Assembly (NCBI GenBank): GCA_963746365.1
Contig: CAVVBH010000031.1
Location: 98,245-162,244 of the forward strand
Direction of reading: 5' to 3'
DNA from: Ilumatobacteraceae bacterium
GTDB lineage: Bacteria > Actinomycetota > Acidimicrobiia > Acidimicrobiales > Ilumatobacteraceae
DNA: 64,000 bases
Both the position numbers and the translations under genes were made by a program. This document shows, piece after piece, positions 12,781-64,000 of this stretch; the first letter of the stretch is position 1; each line of letters starts with the position of its first letter. Below the pieces are notes generated by a model. The model was given only the letters and a program-made list of their open reading frames with translations, searched no databases and was not told the DNA's origin.

Positions 12781-12785
12781 GCCCC

Positions 12786-14156: not shown

Positions 14157-14190
14157 CGTTCGTTACCCGATTGTGAAAGAATTGTCGACG

Positions 14191-14427
14191 ATGGCGCTCG
14201 ATCCACGACTGTTGGCTGTTCTCGCTTGCCCACAAGACAAGGGTCCGTTGTACTACCTCGGCGACGCCGATGGCCTGTACAACCCGCGCCTCCATCGCCG
14301 GTACGTGGTGCGCGACGGAATCCCGGTGATGCTGATCGACGAAGCCGTGACCGTCGACGAGGCCGAACACGAGGCGATCATGTCCCGAGTGAGCAGCGAA
14401 GGCCTTGCGCCGACGTTTGCCACCTGA
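14191..14427 (+). CDS. Trm112-family small protein
   Basis: MALDPRLLAVLACPQDKGPLYY..YVVRDGIPVMLIDEA is the typical Trm112/UPF0434 signature. ATG at 14191 inside ORF 13921... Confidence 0.75.
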   Translation: MALDPRLLAVLACPQDKGPLYYLGDADGLYNPRLHRRYVVRDGIPVMLIDEAVTVDEAEHEAIMSRVSSEGLAPTFAT

Positions 14428-14507
14428 CCACATTGGAGACATCGTGGGATACGCTCACAGAATGAAGTCGAGGCGGCACACAGCGCGGTTGGCGGCAGCC
14501 ATGGTCT

Positions 14508-15869
14508 TTGGCCGGCGCGATCATCATCCTGCCGACTGCTTCACCGAACGTCCAAGCAGCGACGCCACCGTGCGGGCTCTGCGGGGGCGGCGAGTTCCAT
14601 CCTCTTCCGCCTGCTCGCATCTTCGATTCCCGACCCGGCCTGGCGATCAACGACGTCGCGCCGTTGGGCGCCAAGCCGTTGAGCACCGGCCCGGCGGAGT
14701 TCAGCATCCATCTCCTCGGTCAGGGTGGGATTCCCGCCACATCGGCCAACGTGCTTGCCGTGGTGGTCAACCTCACGGTCACCGAGCCGGGCGCCAGTGG
14801 TTATCTCGAGGCATACGGCAAGGGATCGAAGCCGGAGAAGCGCACGTCGATCGTCAACTTCGGCCCCAACGACACGGTTCCCAACGTGGCCATCGTGCGG
14901 CCGGGAGTCGACGGCGATCTGACGATCGGCCTGTTCGGCCAGAGCGGGACAGCGCACGTCGTTGTCGACGTCTTCGGGTGGTTCTCGACCAGCACGTTCC
15001 CGGTCTCGTCCGCCGACCCTGGAGCTCGGTTGATCCCGACCTCGCCGTCGCGCGTCCTCGACACGCGGCCCGGCGCCCTCAACGTGGGTCGCCCATCGGG
15101 CACGCCGCTGGCAGCCAAAGAGGTACTCCCGCTCCAGATCCGCGGGGTCGACGGCATCAACCCCACAAAGGTCGACGTGGTGCCAGACCAGCCCAACGTC
15201 ACCGGCGTGTTGCTGAACGTGGTTGGCATCACCGGCTCCAGCGCGACCCACCTGTCGGTCTTCCCCAATGACCTCGGGGGTGTGGATCCGGCGACGTCGA
15301 ACCTCAACCTGCCACCCAACGCGATCAAGGCCAACCTCGTCTTCGTGCCCGTTGGCACCGACGGCAAGGTGCGCATCTTCAACAACCAGGGGTCAACCGA
15401 CGTCGTCGCGGATGTCGTGGGCTACATGCAGAGCGGCAAGGACGCCTCGACTCGCGAAGGTCGGGTCGTGCCGCTGTCGTCGCCGTACCGCACGTTCGAT
15501 ACGCGCGATGCCGCGTTCGGCGCAGCACCATTGGGGCCGGGGATGGCCGAGGCCTGGAGCTTCGCCGCATTCGCCAGCTCGGTCGCGATCGGTCCCGACT
15601 CTGTCGGTAACCAACTCGCCGTCATCGGCAACCTGACGTCGGCATCTGTCACACGTCAATACGCGTCGGTCTTCGTCCGGTCGTTCCTCACGGCCTATCC
15701 CGGTCCGGAGCGGCCGCTGTCGTCGAACCTCAACACGGTCGAGGGGCCCGCGGCGATCCCCAACATGGCGGTGCTCAAGTACGGGACCGACAACACCGTG
15801 AACGTCTACAACCTGTTCGGGTTTGCGCACTACCTGTTCGACGCCTCAGCGGTCGTGTTGGCCAACTAG
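14508..15869 (+). CDS. secreted protein built from three tandem ~140-aa beta-type domains, function unknown; likely true start at 14462 in another frame
   Basis: Three internal repeats, each starting R[IVT][FL]D[ST]R.. and ending ..VV[VA]DV.G[WY].. A textbook signal-peptide n-region (MKSRRHTARLAAAMVFG, ATG 14462) lies in the -1 frame directly upstream. It would join to AGAIIILPTASPNVQA/ATPP after a 1-nt correction near 14510. Confidence 0.7.
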   Translation: MAGAIIILPTASPNVQAATPPCGLCGGGEFHPLPPARIFDSRPGLAINDVAPLGAKPLSTGPAEFSIHLLGQGGIPATSANVLAVVVNLTVTEPGASGYLEAYGKGSKPEKRTSIVNFGPNDTVPNVAIVRPGVDGDLTIGLFGQSGTAHVVVDVFGWFSTSTFPVSSADPGARLIPTSPSRVLDTRPGALNVGRPSGTPLAAKEVLPLQIRGVDGINPTKVDVVPDQPNVTGVLLNVVGITGSSATHLSVFPNDLGGVDPATSNLNLPPNAIKANLVFVPVGTDGKVRIFNNQGSTDVVADVVGYMQSGKDASTREGRVVPLSSPYRTFDTRDAAFGAAPLGPGMAEAWSFAAFASSVAIGPDSVGNQLAVIGNLTSASVTRQYASVFVRSFLTAYPGPERPLSSNLNTVEGPAAIPNMAVLKYGTDNTVNVYNLFGFAHYLFDASAVVLAN

Positions 15870-49457: not shown

Positions 49458-49518
49458 GCGTTTGACGAATCCGGCCCGCATACGGGGCGCCAGCCATCAA
49501 GCGCTTTGGTCACCCAGG
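49458..49518. repeat. diverged single copy of the 6849-6961 nested-palindrome element
   Basis: gcgtttgacgaatccggcccgcatacggggcgccagccatcaagcgctttggtcacccagg aligns to the unit plus spacer at 6849-6909. It shares GCGTTTGAC, CCGGCCC-GCAT, and GGTCACCCAGG. Again lies between convergent gene ends. Confidence 0.75.
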
Positions 49519-49562
49519 CGGGACCCGAGGTGAGTTATGCCTCATCCCAACTTGCTGCGAAC

Positions 49563-50766
49563 CTATGAAGAGCCGAGTTCGCCGTGGGTCAGTCGGCGAT
49601 ACGCGTAGTCACGAAGCTCGATCCTCAACGCCTCGGCGGTCCACTCCTCTGCCACGGCGCGGCGAACGACATCGACCTGGGCATCGTTGGTGAGCCCCTT
49701 CAGCGGCTGGTCGCGGTCGAGGTTCGTCGGGAAGGCATATCCATTGGCAGCCGCGCCGATCGCGTTCTCGACTTCCCTCGCCGACGCGCCGGAGGCCTTG
49801 AGCTTCAACAGCGACGGGTAGACGGCGTTGACCATCCGTTCGTGATCGATCGCTTCGAGGCACTTGCCGAACGGCGAGTTGATCTGCAGCAGGTTGGCCA
49901 TGCGGTTCACGTCGGTGGTGCGGTTGGTTCCTGCCGCGTGGAAGAGCGCCGGGTTGAAGAACACGGCGTCGCCCTTGAGCAACGGCAGCTGCACGTAGTG
50001 CTGCTCGAAGTATTCGCGGAACTCCGGCCGCCACCACGCCAGGTACCCGTAGAGATACTTCTGAGCGTGCGGCAGGTACATCGTCGGACCAGTCTCCACC
50101 GGCATGTCGCAATGAGCGATCGCCCCTTGGAGCGTGAGTGCAGCGGAGAGGTTGTGGAGGTGCGCCGGAAACTCGGCGGCCTGCGTCGACGGTCATGAAC
50201 CCGAGGTGATAGTCGCGGTGCGGCTTCTGGGCCGCACCACCCGGGTTGACGACATTGACCTGCGACGTGAAGGTGAAGCCTGGTCCGAGCCAAGCCTGAG
50301 ACGCCATGGTGAGGATGTCGTTTGCGTAGTAGCTGACGAACTCGTCGGGTGCCGACACCGCCAACTTCTCGAGAGCGTTCCACACCCGGTCGTTGTCGCC
50401 GGGCTTCGCGTAGTGGTCGCCGGACTTCATACCGAGCCGGTGCTGCTCGGCGATCATTTCGTTGAATGCCACCGTCGCCGCGTCGACGACCGAGGTGTCG
50501 GGGAATGCCCGCTTGAACACGACGATCCCTGGACCTTCGAGGAACGCCTTGTTGAGCTCGGCCTGCACCGCGCGTCGAGTGTCGGCGTCGGCGCATTCAG
50601 CTCGAAGCCGGTCACAGTCGTAGCTGACGACGTTCTGGATGATCGATTCGGCGAACGGGTAGTCGCTGAGCTGGGTCGTCTGCTCGACGATTGCGATGAA
50701 ATCATCGAGCCGGCAGTCGGACTCGTGCAGATATCCACTGGCGGTGTCGGAATTCACGGAGGTCAT
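49563..50766 (-). pseudogene. phytanoyl-CoA dioxygenase (PhyH) family Fe(II)/2-oxoglutarate oxygenase, one frame break near 50178-50185
   Basis: The N-terminal 195 aa end in ..PHRDYHLGFMTVD (frame of ORF 49609..50766). The protein continues QAAEFPAHLHNLSAALTLQGAIAHCDMPVETGPTMYLPHAQ..FFNPALFHAAGTN.. in the frame of ORF 49563..50105. Confidence 0.75.
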
Positions 50767-50936
50767 GTCTCAAATGTAGATCCCCGGAAGCCGTCCACGG
50801 CTAGCGTGCCCACGTAACCACCTCCTCGACCTCCGTATCACCCACTTCTGGGCCTGCCGCCTCCGGGAACGTCATCACTCGATCAACCCGATCAGCCGGT
50901 CGCACGGTCACCCGCAAGCTGGCGGGCCGCGGTGCC

Positions 50937-51815
50937 GTGCTGGCGATGCTCGTTGCGCCGTTGATGTGGGCGTTCGGCGGCGTGCTGGGCAAGTCGACGC
51001 ATGCATCCGGCGTCGTGCTGTCGTTCTGGCGCATGTGGATCGCGTCCGGAGTTCTCCTGGTGATCGTGGCGCTGACCAAGCGCTGGCCGAGCCGCATGGA
51101 CTTCCGGCGAGCCGGCCTGGCCGGTGTGCTGTTCGGCCTCAACATCTGCGTGTTCTTCATTGCGATTCAGTCCGTCAGCATCGCCACGGCGCTGATCATC
51201 GCTGCCTTGGCTCCGGTCGTGGCGCTGCCGGTCTCGGTCCTGCGGTTCGGCGAGCGACTGACGCCGGTGAAGGTGATCTGCGCTGCTGTGTCGGTGGCCG
51301 GGGTCATCGTCGCGGTGCTCGTGGCACCCTCGAGTGGGTCCGGCACGTCGAGCTCGACGATCGGGTTCTTGTGGGCTCTGTTGGCCTTGGTGTTCTGGGT
51401 CGCGTACCTCCTCGTGTCGAAGGGCGTCCGGCCGAACGTCGAAACGGTGCGCTTCATGTTCGTCGTGTCGGTGATCGGCGCAGCGACGGTGTCGCTGCTG
51501 GTCGTCATCGGCAGCGACGACCTGGGCGAGGTGCACGGCGCAGGGTGGGTGTGGGTGGCCTTGCTGGCGCTCGGTCCGGGCATCGCCGGCCACGGCCTCG
51601 TCGCGTGGGCGCAGCCACGAGTCGATGCGTCGGTGACTTCGGTGTTGATCCAACTCGAACCCGTCGCCGCGTCGACTGCGGCCTGGGTGATCCTCGGCGA
51701 GCGTGTGTCGCTGGCGCAAGGGCTCGCGATGGTCGGAGTCGTTGCGGCCCTGTGCGTGCTTGCGTATCACGAGTCGCGAGACGGTGGTCTGGAGATCGTC
51801 GACGCCGTCAGTTGA
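50937..51815 (+). CDS. EamA/DMT-family transporter
   Basis: 292 aa, 10 TM helices, in two EamA-like halves. GTG at 50937 is the first possible start in frame. Confidence 0.8.
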   Translation: MLAMLVAPLMWAFGGVLGKSTHASGVVLSFWRMWIASGVLLVIVALTKRWPSRMDFRRAGLAGVLFGLNICVFFIAIQSVSIATALIIAALAPVVALPVSVLRFGERLTPVKVICAAVSVAGVIVAVLVAPSSGSGTSSSTIGFLWALLALVFWVAYLLVSKGVRPNVETVRFMFVVSVIGAATVSLLVVIGSDDLGEVHGAGWVWVALLALGPGIAGHGLVAWAQPRVDASVTSVLIQLEPVAASTAAWVILGERVSLAQGLAMVGVVAALCVLAYHESRDGGLEIVDAVS

Positions 51816-51856
51816 CCGGGCGACGACTAATCTCGCCACGAAGGGAGATGGACGCA

Positions 51857-53040
51857 ATGGCAGATTCGTTCCGTGAGATCGAGATGGGCCCCGTCGGCGG
51901 ACGGCTACCCGCCGGCGACGTGACGGCAGCGTTCCCCATCGACGCAGGGATCCTGGTGCAGTTCACCGAGGGGTCGGCGACGGTCCTGCCCGACTGGTTG
52001 CGCGACAACTGCCAGTGCCACGAGTGCCGCATCGTGCAGACCGACGAGCGCCGCTGGCAGCCGTGGACACAGCCGACCGCGCCCAGGGTGACAGCGGTCG
52101 ACGTCGTCGACAGCCAACTGCACGTCGATTGGGAAGGCGGCCATCACTCGACGTTCGGGCCGCCCGAATGGCAGAAGATCCGCACGACCGGCACCCGCGG
52201 CGCGTGGACGGCCAGGCTCTGGAACTCCGGCTACGACGATCGAACGCTTCGACCATCAGCAGTGCGTCGCCGATCAGGTCACACGACGCGGCATGTTCGA
52301 AGCCATTCGACGCGACGGCGCGGCGGTGGTCACCGGATCGCCGACCGAGCCGGGCACGGTCTTGGAGTTCCTCCGCGCGGTCGGCCTGACGGTGCGCGAT
52401 TCCTCGCTCGGCTTGATCTTCGACGTCAAGCTGGATCCCGAGGGCTACAACATCGCGTTCACGGCCGAGGAGGTCCCTCCGCACAACGACAACGCCCAGT
52501 ACACGCACCCGCCCAGCGGCCAGGTGTTGGCGATGCTCGTCAACGAGGCACAGGGTGGCAACAGCGTCGTGGTCGACGGATGGGCGGTGCTCGATCAACT
52601 CAATCGCGAACATCCCGACGCCATCGACGTACTCAGCCGCGTCGAGGTCGGTTTCAGGCAGTACTCGGCCGACGCCGACGCGTTCACCCGCGCGCCGCTG
52701 GTCGTTCGCGACCGCATCGGCCGTTTCGTGCACCTTCGGTTCTCGAACCAGTTGATGCAGCCGTTGGCCTACGACGACGGTGATCTTGCTGCGTGGTATC
52801 ACGCATACCGGTTGCTGGGCGCAGCGATCGCTGACCCCGCCAACCACGTGTCGTTCCGCCTATCGGCCGGCGACACCCTGTTCGTCAACGGTTATCGAGT
52901 GCTGCACGCCGCGCACGGCCTACCAACCCGACGGTCCTCGGCACCTGCAGGACGTGTACTTCGAAATGGACGACGTGTTCGGCCACCTGGCGCGGATGAG
53001 CGGAGAAGCCACCAACGCGATGGTCGCCGGCACGTCGTAA
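51857..53040 (+). pseudogene. gamma-butyrobetaine-hydroxylase-like dioxygenase (DUF971 zinc-ribbon N-domain + TauD/TfdA core), two frame breaks near 52238 and 52911
   Basis: N-domain ..PDWLRDNCQCHECRIVQTDERR.. in the frame of ORF 50966... Catalytic core with HxD (PPHNDNAQY) in the frame of ORF 52293... C-terminus [25 protein letters not shown] in the frame of ORF 52780... AAGGGAG lies 9 nt before the ATG at 51857. Confidence 0.75.
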
Positions 53041-53046
53041 ACCCCT

Positions 53047-53141
53047 TGTGGAGTGTCTGGGTGCACCCTGGTGGGCGCCAAACACTCCACGCCGACCTGT
53101 GGAGTGTCTGGGTGCACCCTGGTGGGCGCCAAACACTCCAC
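53047..53141. repeat. tandem direct repeat (2 x 44 nt, 7-nt spacer) of a third nested-palindrome element
   Basis: Identical units at 53047-53090 and 53098-53141: tgtggagtgtctgggtgcaccctggtgggcgccaaacactccac. Outer stem GTGGAGTGT/ACACTCCAC, inner palindrome GGGTGCACCC. Between convergent gene ends (53040 and 53145). Confidence 0.9.
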
Positions 53142-53144
53142 TTG

Positions 53145-54172
53145 CTAGGCCCAGTCGAGGATGACCTTGCCGCACTCGCCGCCTTCGACGATCGCGAAGG
53201 CTTCCTCGAACCGATCGGCCGGCAGCTCGTGGGTGATGATGCCGCTGACGTCGAGGCCGCTCTGCAGCATCGCGGCCATCTTGTACCACGTCTCGAAGAT
53301 CCGGCGTCCGTAGATCCCCTGGATCTCGAGACCCTTGAAGATCACGTCGTTGATGTCGAGGGTCATCGGGCCGGCCGGGATGCCGAGCACGGCGATCCGG
53401 CCGCCGTGGTTCATCGCGTCGAGCATCTGGTTGAACGCCGACTTCGGCGCCCGACATCTCCAGCCCGACATCGAATCCTTCGGTCATCCCGAGCTCGGTC
53501 ATCACCGGGCCGAGCTGCTCGGTGCGCACGTCGACGACGCGGCTGGCGCCGTGCTTGGCCGCCATGTCGAGGCGGTAGTGGTTGATGTCGGTGACGACCA
53601 CGTTGCGAGCGCCGATGTGGCGCACGATCGCCGTGGCCAGGATGCCGATCGGCCCGGCGCCGGTGATCAGCACGTCCTCGCCGACGACGTCGAATCGCAA
53701 TGCGGTGTGGGTGGCGTTGCCCAGCGGATCGAGCACGGCGGCGACGTTGTCGTCGATGTGCGCGGGGACGACGAAGACGTTCTGTGCGGGGATCACGACG
53801 TACTCGGCGAACGCGCCCGGCCGGGTGACACCGACGCCGGTGTGGTTGTGGCAGAACTCGCGGCGGCCACCTTTGCAGTTGCGACAGTGTCCGCAGGTGA
53901 TGTGGCCTTCGCCGGCCACCCGTTGGCCGACTTCGAGGCCGACCACATCGGCGCCGACCTGTTCGATCTCGCCCATGAACTCGTGGCCGACGACCATCGG
54001 AACGGGGATCGTCGACTGCGCCCAGGCATCCCAGTGATGGATGTGCAGATCGGTGCCGCAGATCGATGTCTTGCGAACCCGGATCAAGCACATCACGATC
54101 GCCGGGGGCGGGCTTTGGGACGTCTTCGAGCCACAGGCCGGGTTCGGGTCTCGCCTTGACCAAGGCCTTCAC
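53145..54172 (-). pseudogene. tdh: L-threonine 3-dehydrogenase, two frame breaks near 54085 and 53450
   Basis: (V)[27 protein letters not shown] | [49 protein letters not shown] | [33 protein letters not shown]. The three pieces lie in three minus-strand frames (ORFs 53411.., 52885.., 53145..). Confidence 0.85.
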
Positions 54173-55351
54173 GAGACCACGCTCCATTGCCTTGCCGACA
54201 CGCACGAACGCCGCGATCGCCTGGTCGATGTCAGTCGTCGCTGTGCGCTGCCGACATCTGCGTGCGGATGCGGGCCTTGCCCTGCGGCACCACGGGAAAC
54301 GAGAACGCAATCACATAGATCCCTTCGTCGAGCAGGCGCTCCGCCATCTCCGATGCGACGCGAGCATCGCCCAGCATCACAGGGATGATGGGATGCCCGG
54401 CACCGGCGAGCGTGAAGCCTGCCTGTTCGAGACCGGCGCGGAAGCGCTGCGGCGTTGCGCTCGACCCGATGTCGTAGCTCGTCGCCCGCCTCCAGCAGGT
54501 CGAGCACGTGAATGGTCGCCGAGGCGATGACCGGGGCCAGGCTGTTGGAGAACAGGTATGGCCGCGACCGTTGACGCAACCAGTCGATGACCTCGCGACG
54601 GCCCGCCGTGTAACCACCGGAGGCACCGCCCAGGGCCTTGCCGAGTGTGCCGGTGATGATGTCGACACGCTCCATCACGCCGGCGAACTCGGGTGTGCCC
54701 CGCCCGTGTTCGCCGACGATCCCGACGGCGTGCGAGTCGTCGACCATCACCATCGCGTCGTACCGCTCGGCGAGGTCGCAGATCGCCGGCAGGTTGGCGA
54801 GCACACCGTCCATCGAGAACACACCGTCGGTTGCGATCAGCCGGTAGCGGGCATCGCTGCTCTCCTGCAGGCGCTGCTCCAACTGATCCATGTCGTTGTT
54901 GTCGTAGCGCAACCGCCGGGCCCGGCACAGGCGGATGCCGTCGATGATCGACGCGTGGTTGAGCGCGTCGGAGATGACAGCGTCCTGCTCGTCGAGGATG
55001 GTCTCGAACAGGCCGCCGTTGGCGTCGAAGCACGACGAGTACAGGATCGTGTCGTCGGTGCCGAGGAACGCCGAGATCCGTGCCTCCAACTCCTTGTGCA
55101 CGGTCTGCGTGCCGCAGATGAATCGTACCGACGCCATGCCGTAGCCGTATCGGTCGAGCGCTGCGTGGGCTGCATCGACGATGTCGCGGTTGTCGGCCAG
55201 GCCGAGGTAGTTGTTGGCGCAGAGATTGAGACCGACGATCCGTCGGCCAAATCGATGTGAGCCGACTGAGTCGAGCCGATGACCCGCTCGGTCTTGAACA
55301 GTCCTTCGCCGACCAGAGCCGCAGTCCGCTGCTGGAGGTCGGCGAGCAAGG
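54173..55351 (-). pseudogene. kbl: 2-amino-3-ketobutyrate CoA ligase (glycine C-acetyltransferase), three frame breaks near 55240, 54454 and 54237; no clean stop before tdh
   Basis: [28 protein letters not shown].. | ..[46 protein letters not shown] (PLP Lys) | ..[35 protein letters not shown] as sequenced. Removing one t restores ..[21 protein letters not shown], which runs in frame into tdh. The lower coordinate is therefore nominal. Confidence 0.8.
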
Positions 55352-55353
55352 GG

Positions 55354-56262
55354 CTACGCATGTTCACGTCGCAGCACAGGCAACACCTCGGTTGCGATCC
55401 GTTCGAAAGCAGGCAGCTGAGCATCGACACCCGGGTAGTACATCGAGATCTCGGTGATCCCAAGATCGGTGATTCGACGCACCATGTCGACGAAGACGTC
55501 GTCGGACTCGTAGTAGCAGATCGCACCTCCGCTGGCTCGCGCCTTCGGATCGAACATCGTGTACGAACGGCGCAGCGACGCCGGATCGCGCCCGACCTCG
55601 GCGCACAGCTCGTCGACCGTCATGCAACGGTCGCTCAACTCCGCGAGCTGCTCCTCGAAATCGGCGGCGAAGCTCAAGCTGTTCCAGATGTCCGCGTGAT
55701 CGACGGCGTGGCGCAACATCTGCGGACCGAGTGCGGCGACCATGATCGGCAATCGTGGCAGCTGCACCGACCCAGGATTCATCACCGCTCCGTTGGCCTG
55801 GTAATAGGTGCCGTGGTAGATGGTGACGCCCTCGGCAAGGAGCTGGTCGACCAGCTCGAGGTATTCGGCGAATCGAGCCACACGTTCGCCGGTGCTCCAG
55901 TTGGGCACCCCGATCATGTCGTACGACGGGTCGATGGTCAGACCCGTACCGATCCCCAACTCCAGTCGGCCACCCGAGATCTGATCGACCGTGACGGCCT
56001 GGTGGGCGAGCACAGCCGGGTTGCGCAAGGCGATCTGGGTGACGCAGGTTGTGAGCCTGATCGTCGAGGTTCGCGCCGCGATCGCGGCGATGCTCGTCCA
56101 CGCTTCGTGCCACGTTCCTGACGGGTTGCCCCAGTTGCAAAAGTGGTCGGGAACAGCGGCGACGTCGAGCCCGAGCGCTTCGAGACGCAGGAACCGGTCG
56201 AGGTACTCCGGCCACGGTACGTTGGGGATGACCAGCACCTGGAACCGCAAGTCGTGGCTCAT
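55354..56262 (-). CDS. LLM-class (luciferase-like) F420-dependent oxidoreductase
   Basis: 302 aa, TIM-barrel LLM motifs (..VPDHF.., ISGGRLELGIGTG). The stop is 2 nt from the kbl start, so it is probably co-transcribed with kbl-tdh. Confidence 0.78.
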   Translation of the reverse strand: MSHDLRFQVLVIPNVPWPEYLDRFLRLEALGLDVAAVPDHFCNWGNPSGTWHEAWTSIAAIAARTSTIRLTTCVTQIALRNPAVLAHQAVTVDQISGGRLELGIGTGLTIDPSYDMIGVPNWSTGERVARFAEYLELVDQLLAEGVTIYHGTYYQANGAVMNPGSVQLPRLPIMVAALGPQMLRHAVDHADIWNSLSFAADFEEQLAELSDRCMTVDELCAEVGRDPASLRRSYTMFDPKARASGGAICYYESDDVFVDMVRRITDLGITEISMYYPGVDAQLPAFERIATEVLPVLRREHA

Positions 56263-56334
56263 GGGCGGATGCTACTTCGCCGCACCAGCTCGTCATCTTG
56301 GCGTCATCATCGATCATGTAGCGTGCTTGGACCA

Positions 56335-57780
56335 ATGGCCGACCTGCGCACGCTCCCTCTCCTGTGGGACGAACTGGTCGACGCCCATGGCAATCCCCGC
56401 CCTGCCGCGGCGGCTCTGGTCGAGCGCTTGCGGTCGCTCGAGATCGAGGAACTGCAACAGCGGCAAGGTCTCGCGGAGGTCGACATCCTGGCGCTCGGCA
56501 TCACGTTCACCGTGTACCACGACGGCCAGGGCACGGATCGCGCCTGGCCGATGGACATCGTGCCGCGCGTGATCGGATCGACGGAGTGGGCCCGGATCGA
56601 GCTGGGGTTGAAGCAGCGCTTGAGCGCTCTCAACCGTTTCATCGACGACGTGTACCACGATCGCCGCATCGTTGCCGATGGTGTCTTCCCCGAGGAACTG
56701 CTGCACGATTCGGTCAACCTGCGCACCGAGTGCGTGGGCATCTCGCCGAAGTTCGGCGTGTGGGCGCACATCTGCGGCAGCGATCTGGTCCGCGACGCCG
56801 ATGGCGTGGTCTACGTGCTCGAAGACAACCTCCGTGTGCCGTCCGGCGCCAGCTACCTGTTGCAGAACCGCGCCATTTCGAAGCGGGCGTTCGCCGACCT
56901 GTTCGAGCGTCAGTCGATCCTGCCGGTCGACGACTACACCGATCAGCTCCGCCGCCTGCTGGTCTCGCTGGCAGCCGACGAACTGCAGGGTGTGCGTCAT
57001 CCGCAGGTGGTCGTGCTGACGCCGGGCGTCTACAACAGTGCCTACTTCGAGCACGCCTTCCTCGCCCAGCAGATGGGCGTTCCGCTGGTGGAAGGGGCGG
57101 ACCTGTTCGTCGATCCGAGCAACCGCGTGTGGATGCGCACGATCGATGGGCCGAAGCCGGTCGATGTCATCTATCGGCGAATCGATGATCAGTTCCTCGA
57201 TCCGGAGGTGTTCCGCAAGGAGTCGCAGCTCGGCGTCGCTGGTCTCATGCGTGCGTGGAGTGCCGGCAACGTGGCCATCGCGAATGCGCCCGGCGCGGGC
57301 GTCGCCGACGACAAGGTGGTCTACGCGTGGGCTCCAGACTTCATCCGCTACTACCTCGATGAAGAGCCGCTGCTGCCCAACGTTCCGACGTATCGCTGTT
57401 TGTACGGCGACGAGTTGGAGTACGTGATCGCTCACGCTTCCGAACTGGTGCTGAAGCCCGCGAACGAGAGCGGCGGCTACGGGCTCACCATCGGCAGTGC
57501 GGCGACCGCTGCAGAACTGGAACTGGCGCTCGACGCGATCAGGGCAGATCCGCGCAACTGGGTGGCGCAGCCGATCCTCAAGCTGTCGACTGCGCCAACG
57601 CTGTGTGCCGGCGAGCTGGCACCCCGGCACGTCGACCTGCGTCCGTTCGTGCTGTCGGGCCGCGATACCTACGTGACGATGGGCGGTCTCACTCGGGTGG
57701 CGCTCGTCGATGGTTCACTCGTCGTCAACTCGTCGCAGGGTGGTGGCTCGAAGGACACCTGGGTCGTCGAGGATCCGTGA
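56335..57780 (+). CDS. circularly permuted type-2 ATP-grasp protein (COG2308-type)
   Basis: 481 aa. ..GITFTVY..DRAWPMDIVPRVI..EW..IE.GL.QR..ALN.F..D.Y.., ..VLKP.NESGGYG.., ..SSQGGGSKDTWV matches my memory of the DUF404/DUF407 family. ATG at 56335 inside ORF 56143... Confidence 0.8.
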   Translation: MADLRTLPLLWDELVDAHGNPRPAAAALVERLRSLEIEELQQRQGLAEVDILALGITFTVYHDGQGTDRAWPMDIVPRVIGSTEWARIELGLKQRLSALNRFIDDVYHDRRIVADGVFPEELLHDSVNLRTECVGISPKFGVWAHICGSDLVRDADGVVYVLEDNLRVPSGASYLLQNRAISKRAFADLFERQSILPVDDYTDQLRRLLVSLAADELQGVRHPQVVVLTPGVYNSAYFEHAFLAQQMGVPLVEGADLFVDPSNRVWMRTIDGPKPVDVIYRRIDDQFLDPEVFRKESQLGVAGLMRAWSAGNVAIANAPGAGVADDKVVYAWAPDFIRYYLDEEPLLPNVPTYRCLYGDELEYVIAHASELVLKPANESGGYGLTIGSAATAAELELALDAIRADPRNWVAQPILKLSTAPTLCAGELAPRHVDLRPFVLSGRDTYVTMGGLTRVALVDGSLVVNSSQGGGSKDTWVVEDP

Positions 57781-58727
57781 TGCTGCTGTCGCGAGTGGCC
57801 GAACGGTTGTATTGGGCGGCCCGATACCTCGAACGTGCGGAGGGAACGGCACGCATCGTGCGTGAGCACTCCAACGTCATCGTCGATCTGCCGCTGACGA
57901 TCCCTCCCAACTGGGATCATCTGCTCGGGATCACCGGCGGTCGCGAGGGCTTCGACAAACGGTACGACGCCGGTGACGAAGTCTCCATCGTGTCGTTCCT
58001 CGTTGCCGACCCGTTGAATCCCGGCAGTGTCTACTCCAGCATCGGCCACGCTCGCGAGAACCTCCGTACGTGCCGCGACATCCTGCCCGCACAGGCGTGG
58101 AACGCCGTCAACGATCTGTACCTCGCCTCGGTACGCGGTGCCGCCGATGGCATCCAACGCCGCCACCGGGCGCGGTTCTTGGAGAAGGTGATCGCGGAGC
58201 ACCAACGGCTGCTCGGAATCCTGACGACCACGATGAGCCGCGACGAGGCGTACACCATGTTGCGCCTCGGTCGCCACATCGAACGATGCGACATGGTGAC
58301 CCGAGTGCTCGACGTTCGTGCCGGACTGTTGCTGGGCGAACGGCCGGAGCGTGCCGAGCTGTACGACGACCTGCAGTGGTCGAGCGTGCTGCGTTCGCTG
58401 TCGGCGCTGCAGATGTACAACCGTCGATCGGCGAAAGGTGCCGGCGCGGCCGAGGTGATCCGGTTCATTCTCGGTGAGGGCACCTTCCCGCGATCTGTCG
58501 CGTACTGTCTGGCGGGAGTGCAGTCGAGTGCCAGGGAGCTACCTCTCAGCGAATCGGTGCTGGCCGCGTGCAGGGCAGCGCTGGTCGAGCTGTCGTCGTC
58601 GGACCCCAACGTGCTGCTCGACGCCGGCGAACTGCACCACAAGGCCGACCGTCTACAGATCGCCATCGCCGCGATCAGCGACCGCATCGCTGGTGCCTAC
58701 TTCGGCCACACGGCTTGGCCGGCTTGA
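57780..58727 (+). CDS. alpha-E domain protein (COG2307-type)
   Basis: MLLSRVAERLYWAARYLERAEGTARIV.. and ..LRLGRHIERCDMVTRVLD.. are the two hallmark helical repeats. The start overlaps the preceding stop (TGATG). Confidence 0.8.
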   Translation: MLLSRVAERLYWAARYLERAEGTARIVREHSNVIVDLPLTIPPNWDHLLGITGGREGFDKRYDAGDEVSIVSFLVADPLNPGSVYSSIGHARENLRTCRDILPAQAWNAVNDLYLASVRGAADGIQRRHRARFLEKVIAEHQRLLGILTTTMSRDEAYTMLRLGRHIERCDMVTRVLDVRAGLLLGERPERAELYDDLQWSSVLRSLSALQMYNRRSAKGAGAAEVIRFILGEGTFPRSVAYCLAGVQSSARELPLSESVLAACRAALVELSSSDPNVLLDAGELHHKADRLQIAIAAISDRIAGAYFGHTAWPA

Positions 58728-58731
58728 ACTG

Positions 58732-61223
58732 ATGGGCGTCGACACCTCGGCCTCCGGCATCCCCGCCTCGTACGCGCGCACCGTCGGGCGGTTCGACGAG
58801 CTCTTCGACGAGTCCGGAGCCGTTCGGCCGCACTGGGAGCCGATGATCAAGACGTGGTCGACGCTCGGCGCAGGCGAGATCGTGCGACGGCAGCGAGTCG
58901 CCGAGCGGCTGTTGGTCGCGGAGGGTGCCGGCCACGTGTTCCACGACGACAGCGAGATCGGCATGTCATGGGGCCTCGACCCGGTGCCGTACGTGATCGG
59001 CGCGTCGGAATGGCGCGACATCGAGCGTGGGTTGGGCCAACGAACGCGTGTGCTCGATGCCGTGCTCGATGACCTGTACGGGCCGCGCCGGCTGCTGCTC
59101 GACGGCGTCATCCCCACCGCCGCCGTGATGGGGTCTCGGGCGTACCAGTTGGCCGCGGTCGGCGTCGCCACGCCGCGACCGCGGCTGACGTTGTACGCCG
59201 CCGATCTCGTCCGTGATGGCGCCGGACAATGGCTGTTGCTGCGCGATCACACCGACGCCCCGACCGGATGTGGCTACGCGCTGATGAACCGCACAGTGCT
59301 GTCGCGCCTCTATCCCGAGCCATTCCGGCATCTTGGAGTCAGTCCCTTGTCGGGTTGGTTCGCCGATCTTCGCTCTGCCCTGTCGTCTGTTGCGCCGTCG
59401 ACCGTCACCGGTCCTCGTACCATCCTCCTCGGACCGAAGCCGCAGCGTCCTGGATTCGTCGAGGCGTCGTATCTCGCCACCCACCTCGGCTACCACCTGG
59501 CCAGCAGCGGTGACCTCATCACGCGCGGCGGCCGCGTCTGGTTGCGAACGCTCGGCGGTCTCGAGCAGATCGACGTCGTCTTCCGCCGCCTCGCCGACAC
59601 AGGGTCGGACCCGCTCGAGCTCCGTCCATCCGGGCTCGGCGGCGTGACCGGCCTGCTGCAGGCGGTGCGCGAAGGCAATGTGGGAGTAGCCAACGCTCTC
59701 GGAAGCGGGGTGGCAGATCGACTGTGGTTGCAGCCCTTCCTGGCCGACGCAGCCCGTCACCTGCTCGGCGAGACGCTGGAGTTGGCCTCGATCGACACGT
59801 GGTGGGTGGGTGATCGCGACACGCTCGCCGCGGTGAAGGCCGACCCGGACACATACGTGTTCCACGACACGGATCCGGTGTCTCCCGCCGCGTCGGTGAT
59901 CGCGGCACACCTGTCGGATTCCGAGGCCGACGGATTGGCTCGATCGAATGACGGCTGCGCCCCATCGATACGTGGTGCAACCGAAGATCGAGTTTGCCAG
60001 CACACCGGTGGCTGTCGATGGCGAGTTGCGGAGTGGCACCGCGAGCATCCGTGTGCAGACCGTTCGCATCGGCGACGAGGCCATCGTGTTGCCGGGTGGG
60101 CACGGTCGCCACGTTGCGCCCGGACAACTGGTGATCAACTCATCGGATGCATTCGGCAAGGACGTGTGGGTGCTCACCAATCCCTCGGCGCCACGGGCGG
60201 CAACGAGTTCGTCGGCCATCGCTCGACGCGCTCGGCTACCTCAGATCGACCTGCGCGACTCGTTGCCGACGCGTTCCGCAGAGGCGTTGTTCTGGCTCGG
60301 CCGCAACGCGGAGCGAGCCGAAGCTGCAACGCGGACCACGCGGCTGATCATCGCCCGCACCGGTGACGATCCTGCGCTGTTGGCGTCGCCGTGGCTCGAT
60401 CACGCCATCGCTGCGCTGCGAGCGGTCAGCGGCGGTCGACCGGCCGAGCGCGAATCCCACGACGGCGCCCGACGGGCAGGAGGCCTTGGCTGTCGAGATC
60501 GCAGCTGCGCTCGACGACCGTTCAGGTGCCGTCGCGAACAGCTTGCGTCACCTCGCGGCGAATGCGGGCGGCGTTCGGGAGTTCCTGTCGACGGCGACGT
60601 GGCGTGTGCTCAACGGTCTCGACTCCGAGCGTGCCGAACTGTCGGCCACCAGCGATCACAGCGACCCGTTCCTCGTCACGGAATGCCTCGACCGGATCAT
60701 GGTCGACCTCGCTGCGCTTGCGGGCCTCGTGATGGAGAGCATGGTGCGCGGCCCGGGATGGCGGTTCCTCGATCTCGGCCGCCGGCTCGAGCGCGCCGTG
60801 CTGCTGCTCGGCGTGATCGAGGCGACGCTCAGCCAGCCTCCCGCAGACGATGTCGCCCAGCCGGTGTACGACCTCGTGCTCGGAGCCAGCGAGAGCCTGG
60901 TTGCGTACCGGCGCCGCTACCGCAGCGATGTTCGCCTTGCGGCCATCGAGGACCTGCTCGTGCACGACGACAGCAACCCACGATCGCTCGTGTTCCAACT
61001 CGATCGCATCAACGAGCATCTGGCCGCTCTGCCATGGAACCCCGACGCGTCGAAGCATCGGCGTTTCCTCGATGCGGCAGCCCGCGGCCGCCTCGGGGAG
61101 GGCCCCGACTCGCTGTCGAAGCTGGTGCTCAGCGTGCGTGGCCCGCTGCTCGAGCTGATCCGAGAGCTGATGCTGGCGTGGTTCACGCACCCGGCGCGCC
61201 GCGGCCTCGGTGGGATCAGCTGA
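58732..61223 (+). pseudogene. fusion of a second circularly permuted ATP-grasp module and a second alpha-E module (about 830 aa), two frame breaks near 59930-59950 and 60467
   Basis: N-terminal ..RPHWEPMIKTW..SWGLDPVPYVIGASEWRDIERGLGQRTRVLDAVLDDLYG.. is in the frame of ORF 58474... The middle ..HRYVVQPKIEFASTP..AEALFWLGRNAERAEAATR.. is in the frame of ORF 59948... The C-terminal ..GWRFLDLGRRLERAVLL..LAWFTHP..* is in the frame of ORF 60363..61223. Confidence 0.75.
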
Positions 61224-62098
61224 TGAAGTACCGGGTCAGCCATACCACCGAGTATCGCTACAGCGCGCAGGTGATCAACGGCCACACGGTGGCTCACCTG
61301 CGCCCTCGCCAGACGCCGACGCAGACGGTGCTCGCGTCGGAGGTGACGACCTCGCCCGCAGCGGACCACACCGACGAGTACCTCGATGCCTTTGGGAACC
61401 ACGTGTCGTATCGCGCTGTCGAGCAGGTGCACGATCAACTCGTCGTGACTGGCCTCTACGAGGTCGACATCTCGACGCCCGCGGGGCTCGTCTGGTCGCC
61501 GCCATGGGAGGAGTTGCGCACGCTGGTGGCCACCGACGGCAGCGCCGACGGCCTGCTGGCGCGAATGTGTTCGATCGAGTCGACGTTCGTGAAGCCGTCG
61601 GCCGATCTGGCCAGGTTCGCCTCGTGGTCGTTCCTGCCCGGCCGGGCGTTTCACGAAGCGGTCATCGACCTGTCGCACCGCATCTTCACCGAGTTTGCGT
61701 TCGACCCGGCGTTCAGCGATGTCAGCACACCACTGGCCGATGTGCTGACCCACCGCCGCGGCGTCTGTCAGGACTTCGCCCACCTCGCAATCGGCACGAT
61801 GCGCTCGCTCGGCCTGCCGGCGAGGTACGTCAGCGGTTACATCGAGAATCGTCCGCCACCAGGTGTGGTGAAGCTGGCGGGGGCCGACGCATCGCACGCA
61901 TGGTGCTCGGTCTACATACCCGGATGGGGTTGGCTGGACGTCGACCCGACCAACGACCAGGCGCCACCGATGAGCCACGTCACCGTGGGCTGGGGACGTG
62001 ACTATGCCGACGTCGCACCGGTGCGCGGCGTGGTGTTCGGCTCGCCGGCGACGCAGGAGCTGTCGGTCGCGGTCGAAGTCACTCGCATCGGCGACTGA
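61223..62098 (+). CDS. transglutaminase-fold protein with bacterial transglutaminase N-terminal domain
   Basis: MKYRVSHTTEYRYS.. (Bact_transglu_N type), catalytic Cys in RRGVCQDFAH, His in SHAWCSVY, Asp in LDVDPTND. The start overlaps the preceding stop (TGATG). Confidence 0.82.
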   Translation: MKYRVSHTTEYRYSAQVINGHTVAHLRPRQTPTQTVLASEVTTSPAADHTDEYLDAFGNHVSYRAVEQVHDQLVVTGLYEVDISTPAGLVWSPPWEELRTLVATDGSADGLLARMCSIESTFVKPSADLARFASWSFLPGRAFHEAVIDLSHRIFTEFAFDPAFSDVSTPLADVLTHRRGVCQDFAHLAIGTMRSLGLPARYVSGYIENRPPPGVVKLAGADASHAWCSVYIPGWGWLDVDPTNDQAPPMSHVTVGWGRDYADVAPVRGVVFGSPATQELSVAVEVTRIGD

Positions 62099-62126
62099 TC
62101 CGTCGCCCGACCGTTACGCTCGCGAT

Positions 62127-64000
62127 ATGGGGAAGATCACCGCCTGCACGCTCGATTGCCCTGACAGTTGCAGCCTCGAGGTGACCGTGGAGGACGGACG
62201 CATGGTCGCCATCGATGCCGCGCCCGACAGCGCCAGCGCCAACCCGTTCACCAACGGGTGGATCTGCGCCAAGGTCAAGCACACTCCGCAACTGCTGCAC
62301 GGTCCCGACCGGGTCACCCGGCCGCTGCGCCGCACCGGCCCGAAAGGTTCTGGCGAGTTCGTCGAGATCACCTGGGACGAAGCGCTCGATCTGTTCGCCG
62401 CCAGGGTCGGCGCTGCGGCCGAGACGCATGGTTGGGGATCGGTCGTTCCGTACCTGTACAGCTCGTCTGCCGGAAACCTCGGTCGGTCCGGTCTGTCTCC
62501 GCTCGTGTGGGAGCACTTCGGCGCGGCGCGAACCGACATCACGATCTGTGCGGCAGTTGTCGGCGAGGCATGGGACCGCACGTATGGCTCGATGGCGTCG
62601 GCTGACCCGTCGGATCTTCAACACAGCGAGTTGATCGTGGTGTGGGGCGCCAACCCCAACGTGTCGCATCCTCACCTTGCACCGGTCATCGAGGGGCGCA
62701 GGCGTGCCGGCGCCAAGGTGATAGTCGTCGACCCTCGGCGCACACAGGTTGCGGCGCGCTGCCGACTTGCATCTCGCCGTGCGTCCCGGCACCGATGGCG
62801 TGTTGGCGATGGCTGTCGCAGCACTGCTGCAGCGCAACGGGCACATCGATCATGCGTTCATCGAGCAATGGGTCGACGGTGCCGACGAATATCTCGCGGC
62901 GTGTGAGCAGTGGACGGTGGCACGTGCCGCCGAGGTCTGCGACGTCGATGGTGGCGACATCGAGATGTTCGCGGAGATGTACGGCACCATCCGTCCGGCG
63001 ATGCTGCGTGTCGGATGGGGTCAGGAGCGAAACCGCAACGGTGGCTCGGCGAGCCGCGCCGTGTTCGCACTACCAGCGTTGGCCGGCCAGTTCGGTGTGC
63101 CCGGCGCCGGTGTGTTCAATTCGATCGACGGGGGAAAGGGCTACGAGGCGTCTGCAGTCCGGCGCGGCGTGGTCGGCGATGCTCCGGTTCCGGATCGCCG
63201 GGCGATCAACATGAACCGCCTCGGTCGCATCCTGACCGACGACGAAGGCGGACGTGTCGAGGTGCTGTTCGTGCAGGGTTCGAATCCTGCGGCAACGTGC
63301 CCCGAACAGGCCATCGTCCTGCAAGGTCTGGCTCGCGAGGATCTCTTCACCGTCGTGCACGACCTGACCATGACCGACACTGCCCAGTACGCCGATCTCG
63401 TTCTGCCGGCCACGTCGCAATTCGAGGTCGACGAGGTCGTCGGCAGCTATGGGTCGTTCGTGATGCAGGAGGGTCCGGCCGTGATCCCGCGTGTCGGCGA
63501 GAGTCGCACCAACGACGAGGTCAGCGTCGGCGTCGGGATCCGACTCGGTCTCGATCCGCAGCAATGGGACCCCAGCCCGCAACGAGTTCGACGCCTGGCG
63601 CTGGGTGATCGCGTCCTGCCCTTCATGAAGCGCCCGAGCGATGGCACGGTGCAGTTCCGAGACGTCGATCCGGGCGGCAAGGTGCAGTTGGTCTACGACG
63701 CCGAGGGTGTGGATCAGCTCCCTGCGTTCCGTGACATCGATCGGCCCGATCTACCGATCACACTGATCACACCGGCGACGAGTCGCACGACCAGCTCGAT
63801 GTTCGGCAACCTCGCGCCGGCCAGCGCCGACGTGCACATGCATCCCGCCGACGCCGCAGCCAGGGGGCTCGCCTCGGGCGATGTGGCTCGGATCACCGAC
63901 GGCCGGCACACGATCGAGGCGATCGTTGCCGTCGACACCACCCTTCGCCCAGGTCTGGCGACGATGCCGAAGGGAATGTGGCGCCGCGATGGTCACAACG
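62127..64000 (+). pseudogene. molybdopterin (MopB-superfamily) oxidoreductase catalytic subunit; 3' end outside the window; one frame break near 62758-62760
   Basis: N-terminal 4Fe-4S motif CTLDCPDSCSLEV. ..VVWGANP..KVIVVDPRRTQVAAR is in the frame of ORF 61998... ADLHLAVRPGTDGVLA..VQGSNPAATCPE.. continues open to nt 64000 in the +1 frame, and is not in the ORF track because it has no stop. Confidence 0.8.

Follow-up and report, generated by a model that had tools for sequence, protein, structure and literature searches.

A four-gene ATP-grasp/alpha-E/transglutaminase-like operon in Ilumatobacteraceae: one predicted ligase and a fused paralogue with altered ATP/Mg2+ ligand positions

Why a bacterium should encode a circularly permuted (CP) ATP-grasp protein and an alpha-E protein as separate units and, directly downstream, both modules again as one polypeptide, the whole being followed by a single transglutaminase-fold protein, is the question raised by a four-gene locus of an uncultured freshwater/soil actinobacterium of the Ilumatobacteraceae (Acidimicrobiia), as distinct from a mycobacterium. 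The locus lies in a stretch of 64,000 nucleotides that was analysed as a whole (the window). The CP-ATP-grasp/alpha-E/transglutaminase-like system is found in many bacterial phyla, including Mycobacterium tuberculosis and Pseudomonas, was described in 2008-2009 and is still without a known product; the operon of the window joins this widespread and known system, which is itself functionally uncharacterised. On balance, the region is probably a functional four-gene operon and a condensed form of this amidoligase system, working through the ligase/paralogue/amidase mechanism set out below.

Layout of the operon and its occurrence

The four plus-strand genes (table 1) and their junctions were found on re-examination where the first-pass annotation had placed them, namely a stop-start overlap (TGATG, 57778-57782) between genes 1 and 2, a 4-nt gap (58728-58731) between genes 2 and 3, and a second TGATG overlap (61221-61225) between genes 3 and 4. 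Its description is supported: the operon is of the COG2308/COG2307/COG1305 amidoligase type, with all genes in one orientation and coupled in translation. Its four domain assignments hold as well, as a Pfam search recovers CP_ATPgrasp_2, Alpha-E, Bact_transglu_N and Transglut_core. Inside the operon no internal promoter-like or terminator-like site was found and no Rfam family scored above threshold; none of the four proteins matches a PADLOC anti-phage defence model.

Table 1. Features of the operon and of its upstream region (positions in the window).
Feature	Position	Strand	Description	Basis
Divergent intergenic/promoter region	56263-56334	.	between minus-strand luciferase-like monooxygenase gene and gene 1	
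Gene 1 (G)	56335-57780	+	stand-alone CP-ATP-grasp protein, 481 aa	Pfam
Gene 2 (E)	57780-58727	+	alpha-E protein, 315 aa, all-helical	Pfam
Gene 3 (GE)	58732-61223	+	fused CP-ATP-grasp + alpha-E, 829 aa once frame-corrected	
First frame break	about 59927	+	1-nt insertion vs three intact orthologues	DNA alignment
Second frame break	about 60459-60462	+	4-nt insertion (net +1), variable linker of alpha-E module	DNA alignment
Gene 4 (T)	61223-62098	+	transglutaminase-fold protein, 291 aa	Pfam

The divergent region upstream of gene 1, for which a regulatory role may be inferred, contains three 11-nt phased repeats (CGTCATCTTGG, CGTCATCATCG and ATCATGTAGCG, at about 56291-56323) and is 94% identical over five genomes, as compared with about 80% for their coding DNA. 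The arrangement GTCATC-N5-GTCATC has a single occurrence in the window, which is statistically not unusual in itself.

The gene order of the window recurs in 14 of 83 related loci, being the norm in Acidimicrobiia and present also in one Pirellulaceae genome; another 15 of the 83 have the same genes together with a large transglutaminase-DUF2126 protein, and this five-gene version is present across many phyla. Thus, the joining of stand-alone and fused versions in one operon, which had initially been singled out as a special feature, is not unusual. The adjacency of GE and T is kept in nearly all loci. Neither the window nor any of the 14 four-gene loci encodes the large protein (Bact_transglu_N, Transglut_core and DUF2126), which is found in at least 38 other loci. 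Flanking genes are common to close relatives only, the four genes being the sole unit conserved across distant relatives; no other neighbour family recurs around the 83 loci, which bears out the earlier observation that neither an Anbu peptidase nor a conserved small open reading frame goes with the operon.

Ligand positions and folds of the four proteins

Gene 1 matches the Pfam models CP_ATPgrasp_2 (E 7e-153) and CP_ATPgrasp_1 (E 2e-129), as well as PDB 3n6x (E 4.5e-149; E 4.6e-213 in a profile search). It retains all residues that are invariant in stand-alone proteins (E163-D-N165, K327, K374-PAN-E378-SGGYG383, D434 and K473-D474), its ATP and Mg2+ ligand positions being 97-100% conserved among these (n = 37), and it has the phosphate-binding lysines, the glycine-rich loop and the acidic/Asn Mg2+ ligands by which ATP-grasp competence was judged. 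Its dN/dS is 0.067, and stand-alone ATP-grasp proteins are 53-61% identical between phyla, as against 33-38% for the N-terminal half of the fused proteins. Gene 1 is predicted to encode an active ATP-dependent carboxylate-amine ligase. The one published activity that bears on ATP-dependent amide-bond formation in the system is the release of phosphate from ATP in vitro by a Yersinia orthologue of the stand-alone protein (PMC6376114).

In Pfam, gene 3 gives CP_ATPgrasp_2 followed by Alpha-E over its three frame pieces, and the comparison of 37 stand-alone with 81 fused sequences sets the two families apart at the ligand positions. Each of the following is conserved in 97% of the stand-alone proteins: E163, which is A, S or G in the fused proteins; N165, which is R in 84% of them; K327, the ADDK lysine, replaced by P or A; E378, the loop glutamate, replaced by P or R; D434, replaced by V, S or A; and the G380-G381-x-G383 loop, for which the fused proteins have no consensus. 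The loop lysine, K374, is still K in 74% of the fused proteins and is H in the Acidimicrobiia clade of the window (YVFHDTDPVSPAAS). At the aligned positions gene 3 itself has R171, H173, L331, H378, P382, S384-P385, A387 and S438, so that its N-terminal half is without the features of ATP-grasp competence listed for gene 1; a like loss is seen across the 81 fused proteins and spans all phyla sampled. The positions concerned map, by motif spacing and fold similarity rather than by residue-level structural superposition, onto the K364-x3-E368-GGG loop and the Mg2+/phosphate ligands of eukaryotic-type glutathione synthetase (PMC2845819).

As judged from these alignments, only one of the two ligase-like modules of the operon retains the residues needed for ATP use, and we read the operon as one predicted ligase, one putatively non-catalytic paralogue and one probable thiol amidase. 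A full-length model of P0121, which is 93% identical to gene 3, has pLDDT 89 and pTM 0.87, and the best structural match of the N-terminal half is PDB 3n6x (TM 0.87). The fusion itself, together with the pTM of this model, argues for a physical association of ATP-grasp and alpha-E modules. In the light of strong purifying selection and of the invariant Arg, Asp and Asn residues shared with the stand-alone family, the fused protein may have another catalytic activity or a non-canonical mode of nucleotide binding.

Gene 2 matches Pfam Alpha-E (E 7e-77) and lies directly 3' of the ATP-grasp gene. Its AlphaFold2 model (pLDDT 93, pTM 0.91) consists of 14 helices, and a Foldseek search of the PDB with it returned no structural relative (best E 0.33, TM <=0.26), so that this confidently modelled protein is without a relative among solved structures. 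The conserved core is rich in Arg and Glu (W12, R15, E18, R19, R25, R99, E168 and R169). Gene 4 (Bact_transglu_N and Transglut_core in Pfam; E 2e-12 to PDB 3isr) contains the motifs RRGVCQDFAH, SHAWCSVY and DVDPTND noted in the first pass, and the Cys-His-Asp triad is indeed intact (C182-H225-D241, invariant in 72 homologues). Identity of gene 4 is 41-45% with the T proteins encoded after GE genes and 29-35% with the remaining small T proteins of the same loci, and the gene is assigned to the orthologous group that follows the fused genes.

A proposed mechanism and its alternatives

In the mechanism favoured here, gene 1 with its alpha-E partner gene 2 would be the only ATP-dependent ligase, activating a carboxylate as acyl-phosphate for coupling to an amine. 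It would make an amide of the gamma-glutamyl or peptide type, carried by a small molecule, a peptide or a protein, as with glutathione and glutathionylspermidine synthetases. Gene 3 would be a non-catalytic paralogue of the gene 1/gene 2 pair, still binding substrate or product and serving gene 4 as scaffold or regulator, and gene 4 would be a papain-like thiol amidase/peptidase, possibly a transamidase, that removes or transfers the ligated group. Genes 1 and 4 would follow the logic of E. coli glutathionylspermidine synthetase (Gss), in which a synthetase is paired with an amidase. This chemistry is proposed by analogy, since, as already stated in the first-pass annotation, the literature yielded no substrate, product or phenotype for any member of the system. 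Pull-downs of the Yersinia proteins, which gave no stable complexes, count against the mechanism (PMC6376114).

As a tentative extension, which is rather unlikely, the fused protein could be a non-catalytic reader dedicated to the amide that genes 1 and 2 make, handing the product to the transglutaminase-fold enzyme or gating that enzyme; this would turn the system into a module of writer, reader and eraser for a metabolite or peptide tag, with the four-gene operon of Acidimicrobiia as its minimal complete form and alpha-E as a ligand-binding fold. A fused paralogue that, as the sequences indicate, is degenerate rather than a second ligase changes the design of any reconstitution, which would call for a single active enzyme together with a binding partner and a thiol enzyme. 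The value of the analysis lies in guiding experiments on tractable homologues, the host being uncultured.

Only the nature of the acceptor separates this mechanism from protein or peptide tagging, in which the ligase would tag a target protein with an amino acid or a peptide, in the manner of tubulin-tyrosine-ligase-like enzymes and RimK, the transglutaminase-like enzyme would be a de-tagging peptidase and the alpha-E modules would recognize the target. Large conserved Arg/Glu-rich surfaces of alpha-E are in keeping with such recognition, a non-catalytic fused paralogue would suit a tag reader, and tagging is the prediction of comparative genomics, restated in PMC3495828 and PMC5666114. However, the relatives nearest in structure are ligases of small molecules (glutathione and homoglutathione synthetases, Gss, YgiC and Cp1B of the E-64 pathway), the operon has no conserved target gene and there is no report of a tagged protein, so that tagging is considered unlikely.

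The two-ligase, one-hydrolase pathway suggested by the first-pass annotation, in which genes 1 and 3 would add two successive amide bonds and gene 4 would trim or transfer the product, can draw on the strong CP_ATPgrasp matches of both proteins, on a long list of shared invariants (R95, D105, Y107, R153, D164, N178, R179, E239, D256, R281, R282, D289, N317, R436, K473, D474 and W476), on the purifying selection acting on the fused gene and on the lysine of the KP motif, kept by most fused proteins outside Acidimicrobiia. Yet the glycine-rich loop, the loop glutamate, the E-x-N motif, the ADDK lysine and D434 are missing from the fused family in all phyla sampled, and the loop lysine is also gone in the clade of the window; the lost residues serve as ATP-phosphate and Mg2+ ligands in the nearest characterized relatives and are invariant in stand-alone proteins. 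A second ligase is therefore unsupported, and we regard it as distinctly improbable.

The two frame breaks of gene 3 are present in the deposited sequence as first noted, at sites slightly upstream of those originally given. Dropping one base at each restores an uninterrupted protein; tblastn with intact orthologues (827-829 aa) maps gene 3 to frames 1, 2 and 3, and the best matches are Ilumatobacteraceae genomes with identical gene order and an intact gene 3 of 827-828 aa. Throughout the window there is about one single-base insertion per 1.3 kb, housekeeping genes included. In the approximately 15 kb covered by L002 proteins there are 11 frameshifts, which DNA alignment resolves into 10 insertions (nine of 1 base and the 4-nt insertion of gene 3) and one 1-nt deletion, none of the 11 being in a homopolymer run; two tallies arrive at the same total, with discrepancies confined to the ends of tdh and kbl. 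Each of the three frame segments of gene 3 has a dN/dS of 0.068-0.085, equal to that of genes 1, 2 and 4. The window-wide pattern of insertions, the intact orthologues and the low dN/dS in all segments indicate that the breaks are almost certainly assembly errors. The decaying operon of which the first-pass annotation had warned, with gene 3 a true pseudogene (called as a truncated 544-aa product, P0171) and the system being lost in the lineage, is hardly credible, given that comparable single-base insertions break tdh, kbl, TauD, PhyH and the molybdopterin oxidoreductase in the same window, that the correct frame has no stop codon past either break, that dN/dS is 0.07 downstream of them and that the gene is intact in all relatives.

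Comparison with known systems

PDB 3n6x, Mfla_0391 of Methylobacillus flagellatus, is a structural genomics entry named 'putative glutathionylspermidine synthase'. It is closely homologous to gene 1 and has the same motifs but is known from its structure alone, the depositors' name being a guess without experimental backing. The nearest characterized structural relative is the eukaryotic-type glutathione synthetase family, which, like Gss and YgiC, has the circularly permuted ATP-grasp fold (Foldseek probability 1.00; target-normalized TM 0.38-0.65, E 4.5e-10 to 2.4e-4). Gene 1 follows the K-x3-E-GG(G) loop logic of glutathione synthetase, although sequence similarity to either glutathione synthetase or Gss is undetectable, and what the comparison with Gss shows is a similarity of fold alone (TM about 0.4, E 6e-6 to 1e-4). 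In Gss, a papain-like thiol amidase undoes what the ligase makes; the operon has no CHAP amidase domain by Pfam and carries a transglutaminase-fold protein instead, and the alpha-E partner has no counterpart in Gss or glutathione synthetase.

The Anbu-type operon (CP-ATP-grasp COG2308, alpha-E COG2307, transglutaminase-like COG1305 and Anbu peptidase), reportedly described by Valas & Bourne in 2008 and by Iyer et al. in 2009, and including PP_2685-2688 of Pseudomonas putida, shares three protein families and their order with the window (ligase, then alpha-E, then transglutaminase-like), and a role in peptide ligation or tagging is likewise predicted for it. The window differs in having no Anbu peptidase, which is frequent but not universal in the system, in the fused degenerate gene placed between the alpha-E and transglutaminase-like genes, and in a transglutaminase-like gene from the orthologous group that follows fused genes. 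Induction of the system by nitrogen starvation is known only for proteobacteria.

Of the M. tuberculosis loci, the stand-alone one, Rv2411c-Rv2410c-Rv2409c, corresponds to genes 1 and 2, and Rv2566-Rv2567/Rv2569c to genes 3 and 4 (large transglutaminase-DUF2126 protein, fused protein and small transglutaminase), the fused gene being followed in the window by a small transglutaminase of the matching orthologous group. Unlike in M. tuberculosis, both modules are in one operon, and the large transglutaminase-DUF2126 protein and a second small transglutaminase are absent. Rv2411c and Rv2567 have been listed as uncharacterized candidate enzymes with an ATP-binding domain (bioRxiv 10.64898/2026.04.15.718621).

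A further correspondence is with the five-gene cluster G, E, large transglutaminase-DUF2126, GE, T of Planctomycetota, Acidobacteriota, Verrucomicrobiota, Myxococcota and Proteobacteria (loci L014, L018, L032, L033, L040, L049, L058 and others), which shares gene set and order with the window, down to the degenerate fused protein with a small transglutaminase of its own next in line, and differs by its additional protein of about 1,120-1,190 aa (Bact_transglu_N, Transglut_core and DUF2126). The four-gene arrangement, a minimal gene set, shows the components of the system travelling together without this large protein and without a second transglutaminase.

Layout and integrity of the operon

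Inspection of the ORFs and of the sequence itself bears out the four coupled plus-strand genes described in the first-pass annotation, together with their junctions: the stop of gene 1 and the start of gene 2 share a TGATG, a 4-nt gap separates genes 2 and 3, and a second TGATG forms the gene 3/gene 4 junction. A Pfam search upheld the domain call made for each product, namely a stand-alone circularly permuted (CP) ATP-grasp protein (gene 1, G), an alpha-E protein (gene 2, E), a fusion of the two (gene 3, GE) and a small transglutaminase-fold protein (gene 4, T). The Cys, His and Asp motifs quoted for gene 4 are likewise found, with C182, H225 and D241 invariant among 72 homologues. No NCBIfam or PADLOC model matches any of the four proteins, and Rfam, promoter and terminator scans inside the operon gave nothing usable.

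Features of the operon and its surroundings, with frameshifts of window positions 49500-63000 located by comparison with close relatives
Feature	Position	Strand	Description
PhyH	50182		frameshift
TauD	52237, 52911		frameshifts
tdh-kbl pair and luciferase-like monooxygenase gene	53145-56262	-	divergent from operon
tdh	53441, 54088		frameshifts
kbl	54180, 54233, 54451		frameshifts
kbl	55229		frameshift, deletion
Divergent intergenic region	56263-56334		72 nt, upstream of gene 1
Gene 1	56335-57780	+	481 aa; CP_ATPgrasp_2 and CP_ATPgrasp_1
Gene 1/gene 2 junction	57778-57782		TGATG
Gene 2	57780-58727	+	315 aa; Alpha-E
Gene 3	58732-61223	+	three frame pieces; CP_ATPgrasp, then Alpha-E
Gene 3, first break	~59927		one extra base
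Gene 3, second break	~60459-60462		4-nt (net +1) insertion
Gene 3/gene 4 junction	61221-61225		TGATG
Gene 4	61223-62098	+	291 aa; Bact_transglu_N and Transglut_core
Molybdopterin oxidoreductase gene	62127-64000	+	begins 28 nt past gene 4
Molybdopterin oxidoreductase gene	62760		frameshift

The nearest proteins to the operon products (90-93% identity) come from metagenome-assembled genomes of Ilumatobacteraceae (Acidimicrobiia), which shows that the window does not derive from a mycobacterium. In three contigs of close relatives (L001-L003) the gene order is identical to that of the window and gene 3 is intact at 827-828 aa; L002 is contig JBEEHE010000032.1 of GCA_041167245.1, with the four genes at 10001-15767. 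Comparison with these contigs confirmed that gene 3, which the database record gives as a truncated 544-aa product, carries two frame breaks as sequenced, and deletion of one base per break site restores an open frame of 829 aa. Frameshifts are not confined to this gene: mapping of the L002 proteins revealed one in PhyH, two in TauD, two in tdh, three to four in kbl and one in the downstream molybdopterin oxidoreductase gene, for a total of 11 in the ~15 kb of the window covered by these proteins. By DNA alignment, 10 of these are insertions, nine of a single base and one, in gene 3, of 4 nt; the remaining one is a 1-nt deletion. None of the 11 lies inside a homopolymer run, and across positions 49500-63000 their density is about one per 1.3 kb, mostly as single-base insertions.

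Two orthologues served for estimates of dN/dS. In the comparison with L002 the ratio is 0.085, 0.072 and 0.068 in the three segments into which the breaks divide gene 3, in the same range as the values of genes 1, 2 and 4 (0.067-0.075). Because frameshifts occur well beyond gene 3 and its dN/dS resembles that of the other three genes, it is concluded that the breaks are almost certainly assembly or sequencing errors and that gene 3 is functional. Decay of gene 3 or of the operon, which had been considered possible, is contradicted by the low dN/dS of all three segments, by the intact relatives and by the window-wide errors. Programmed frameshifting was rejected, as the indels occur in no relative and fit the window-wide error pattern. 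Any apparent 'pseudogene' in the window should be presumed to be an assembly error until shown otherwise.

Locus architectures and flanking genes

Species-representative genomes were searched with an alignment of homologues of the fused protein, and relatives turned up in at least 573 of them; the best 80 loci were taken for locus analysis. ORFs were assigned to classes G, E and T by profile HMMs built for each family, and the result covers 83 loci. The window order G-E-GE-T is found in 14/83 (13 Actinomycetota, mostly Acidimicrobiia, and one Pirellulaceae), and in 15/83 G and E share one locus with GE, T and a large T, a protein of ~1,120-1,190 aa that combines Bact_transglu_N, Transglut_core and DUF2126 ('putative amidoligase'). 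The co-occurrence of stand-alone and fused versions, which had been regarded as special, is thus a common arrangement. The remaining loci carry large T, GE and T, the flank holding neither G nor E (19/83), GE-T with G and E nearby (6/83) or GE-T alone (8/83), or have flanks too short for classification or no GE called, as in L006 (21/83).

Among the small T proteins there are two orthologous groups, which share ~30-35% identity (as seen in L032, L034, L048 and L073) and occur together in some loci: one follows GE genes, while the other (T') comprises the remaining small T genes of the same loci, among them the gene downstream of G-E in L034. Gene 4 falls into the GE-following group (41-45% identity, versus 29-35% to the other). 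In the light of the locus architectures and of this grouping, the window operon represents, in condensed form, a pair of linked modules (G-E-T' and large T-GE-T) from which T' and large T are missing. Clustering of neighbour ORFs turned up nothing beyond a generic ABC ATPase family and ORFs that shadow the large transglutaminase, and no further family is recurrent; the reported lack of an Anbu peptidase and of a small ORF extends to the related loci, neither recurring among their neighbours.

The window flanks (tdh, kbl, the luciferase-like monooxygenase, the molybdopterin oxidoreductase and a PfkB kinase) are common to the closest relatives only. Synteny of the tdh-kbl pair (threonine dehydrogenase and 2-amino-3-ketobutyrate CoA ligase) and the monooxygenase gene is likewise limited to close relatives, as is the adjacency of gene 4 and the molybdopterin oxidoreductase gene, between which two extra ORFs are inserted in L001. 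No terminator-like site was found between these last two genes, and the molybdopterin oxidoreductase gene may be co-transcribed with the operon in the window genome. Five genomes share 94% identity over the intergenic region that precedes gene 1, compared with only ~80% in their coding DNA. The region contains three 11-nt phased repeats, CGTCATCTTGG, CGTCATCATCG and ATCATGTAGCG, a spacing typical of the sites of OmpR/PhoB-family response regulators, a family that includes GlnR, PhoP and MtrA.

One putative ligase, one diverged ATP-grasp module and the alpha-E partner

The N-terminal halves of fused GE proteins (81 sequences) were aligned with stand-alone G proteins (37 sequences), many phyla being represented, and two sets of residues emerged (gene 1 numbering). 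R95, D105, Y107, R153, D164, N178, R179, E239, D256, R281, R282, D289, N317, R436, K473, D474 and W476 are invariant in both G and GE. The second set, 97-100% conserved in G, is lost in GE: E163 (A, S or G in GE), N165 (R in 84%), K327 of the ADDK motif (P or A), E378 (P or R), G380-G381-x-G383 (no consensus) and D434 (V, S or A). K374 of the 'vvKP' motif is present in 74% of GE proteins and is His in the clade of the window, where the loop reads YVFHDTDPVSPAAS, its gene 1 counterpart being LVLKPANESGGYG. The K-x3-E-GG(G) loop of gene 1 matches that of eukaryotic-type glutathione synthetase, the mapping being one of motif spacing and fold and not of superposition; in that enzyme, K364 and K305 bind the ATP phosphates, a glycine triad stabilizes phosphoryl transfer and four acidic residues hold two Mg2+ ions (PMC2845819). 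Furthermore, cross-phyla identity is 53-61% for G versus 33-38% for the N-terminal half of GE, so that G is far more constrained. On the basis of the residue loss in GE and the stronger constraint on G, we infer that gene 1 would be the sole ATP-dependent ligase of the operon, and that gene 3 would carry a derived ATP-grasp module which is non-catalytic yet still under selection. The 'two-ligase' pathway proposed in the first-pass annotation is at variance with these alignments.

Sequence and profile searches of the PDB with the ligase retrieved only 3n6x, which is also the top Foldseek match (TM 0.87) of an AlphaFold2 model of a 93%-identical GE orthologue (pLDDT 89, pTM 0.87). The other matches are homoglutathione and glutathione synthetases, the E-64 pathway ligase Cp1B, E. 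coli glutathionylspermidine synthetase and YgiC, the glutathione synthetase family being the nearest characterized structural relative. The glutathione-synthetase-like effectors of the nematode Globodera pallida (5oet/5oeu/5oev), a precedent for divergence of this fold from canonical ligase activity, are also among the neighbours.

Both gene 2 and the C-terminal half of gene 3 retain the Arg/Glu-rich core of the alpha-E family (W12, R15, E18, R19, R25, R99, W107, G146, G164, E168, R169, Y213, P237 and R238). The gene 2 model, built from 67 homologues (pLDDT 93, pTM 0.91), is all-helical with 14 helices, and a search of 350,542 PDB chains returned no significant structural relative (best E 0.33, TM <=0.26); PDB sequence and profile searches with alpha-E also found no solved relative. 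Alpha-E thus appears, from the model, to be a fold without any solved relative. Two observations, the fusion of the ATP-grasp and alpha-E modules in nature and the high pTM obtained for full-length GE, speak for a defined complex between these modules.

Proposed scheme and relation to known systems

Valas & Bourne in 2008 and Iyer et al. in 2009 reportedly described the COG2308/2307/1305 association, often with Anbu, and the former Pfam names of the family, DUF403/404/407, also turn up in published work on the B. cenocepacia NtrC regulon. In P. putida (PP_2685-2688), nitrogen limitation induces the operon; in M. tuberculosis the corresponding loci are Rv2411c-2409c and Rv2566-2569c. Phosphate release from ATP has been observed for the ATP-grasp protein of Yersinia; the Yersinia proteins showed no complexes and no Anbu activity, and the authors call the hypotheses unconfirmed (PMC6376114); E. 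coli lysates expressing Rv2411c or Rv2567 made no GABA-trehalose (2026 preprint, bioRxiv 10.64898/2026.04.15.718621). A literature search by family names, DUF and COG numbers and M. tuberculosis locus tags found no functional study and no paper assigning a product or phenotype, in keeping with the earlier statement that no substrate, product or phenotype has been shown. The first-pass interpretation is supported in part: the operon belongs to an uncharacterized amidoligase-type system, of which it is an ordinary member, the kind being widespread.

Gene 4 resembles PDB 3isr, a 'putative cysteine protease' (E 2e-12). M. tuberculosis Rv2569c is a small transglutaminase-fold paralogue of gene 4. 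This protein has been reported as a secreted 'serine protease' cleaving E-cadherin, in a paper whose text makes no mention of a transglutaminase fold, catalytic triad or active site (PMC11081392); the claim fits oddly with a Cys-His-Asp fold.

In the scheme proposed here, genes 1 and 2 would form an acyl-phosphate and then ligate an amine, and gene 4, as a papain-like thiol enzyme, would hydrolyse or transfer the resulting amide. Gene 3 is envisaged as binding this ligand but not turning over ATP, and as working with gene 4, the gene that follows GE in nearly all loci. In published work, the transglutaminase-like protein is predicted to undo the tagging done by the ATP-grasp ligase (PMC3495828), which agrees with the role suggested here for gene 4. 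Peptide tags are favoured in published predictions for the system; the structural neighbours of the ATP-grasp module found by Foldseek are all small-molecule ligases. One putatively active and one degenerate ligase, within a minimal set of four genes, offer concrete guidance for experiments. Among known systems, the proposed division between genes 1-2 and gene 4 is paralleled by the synthetase/amidase logic of glutathionylspermidine synthetase.
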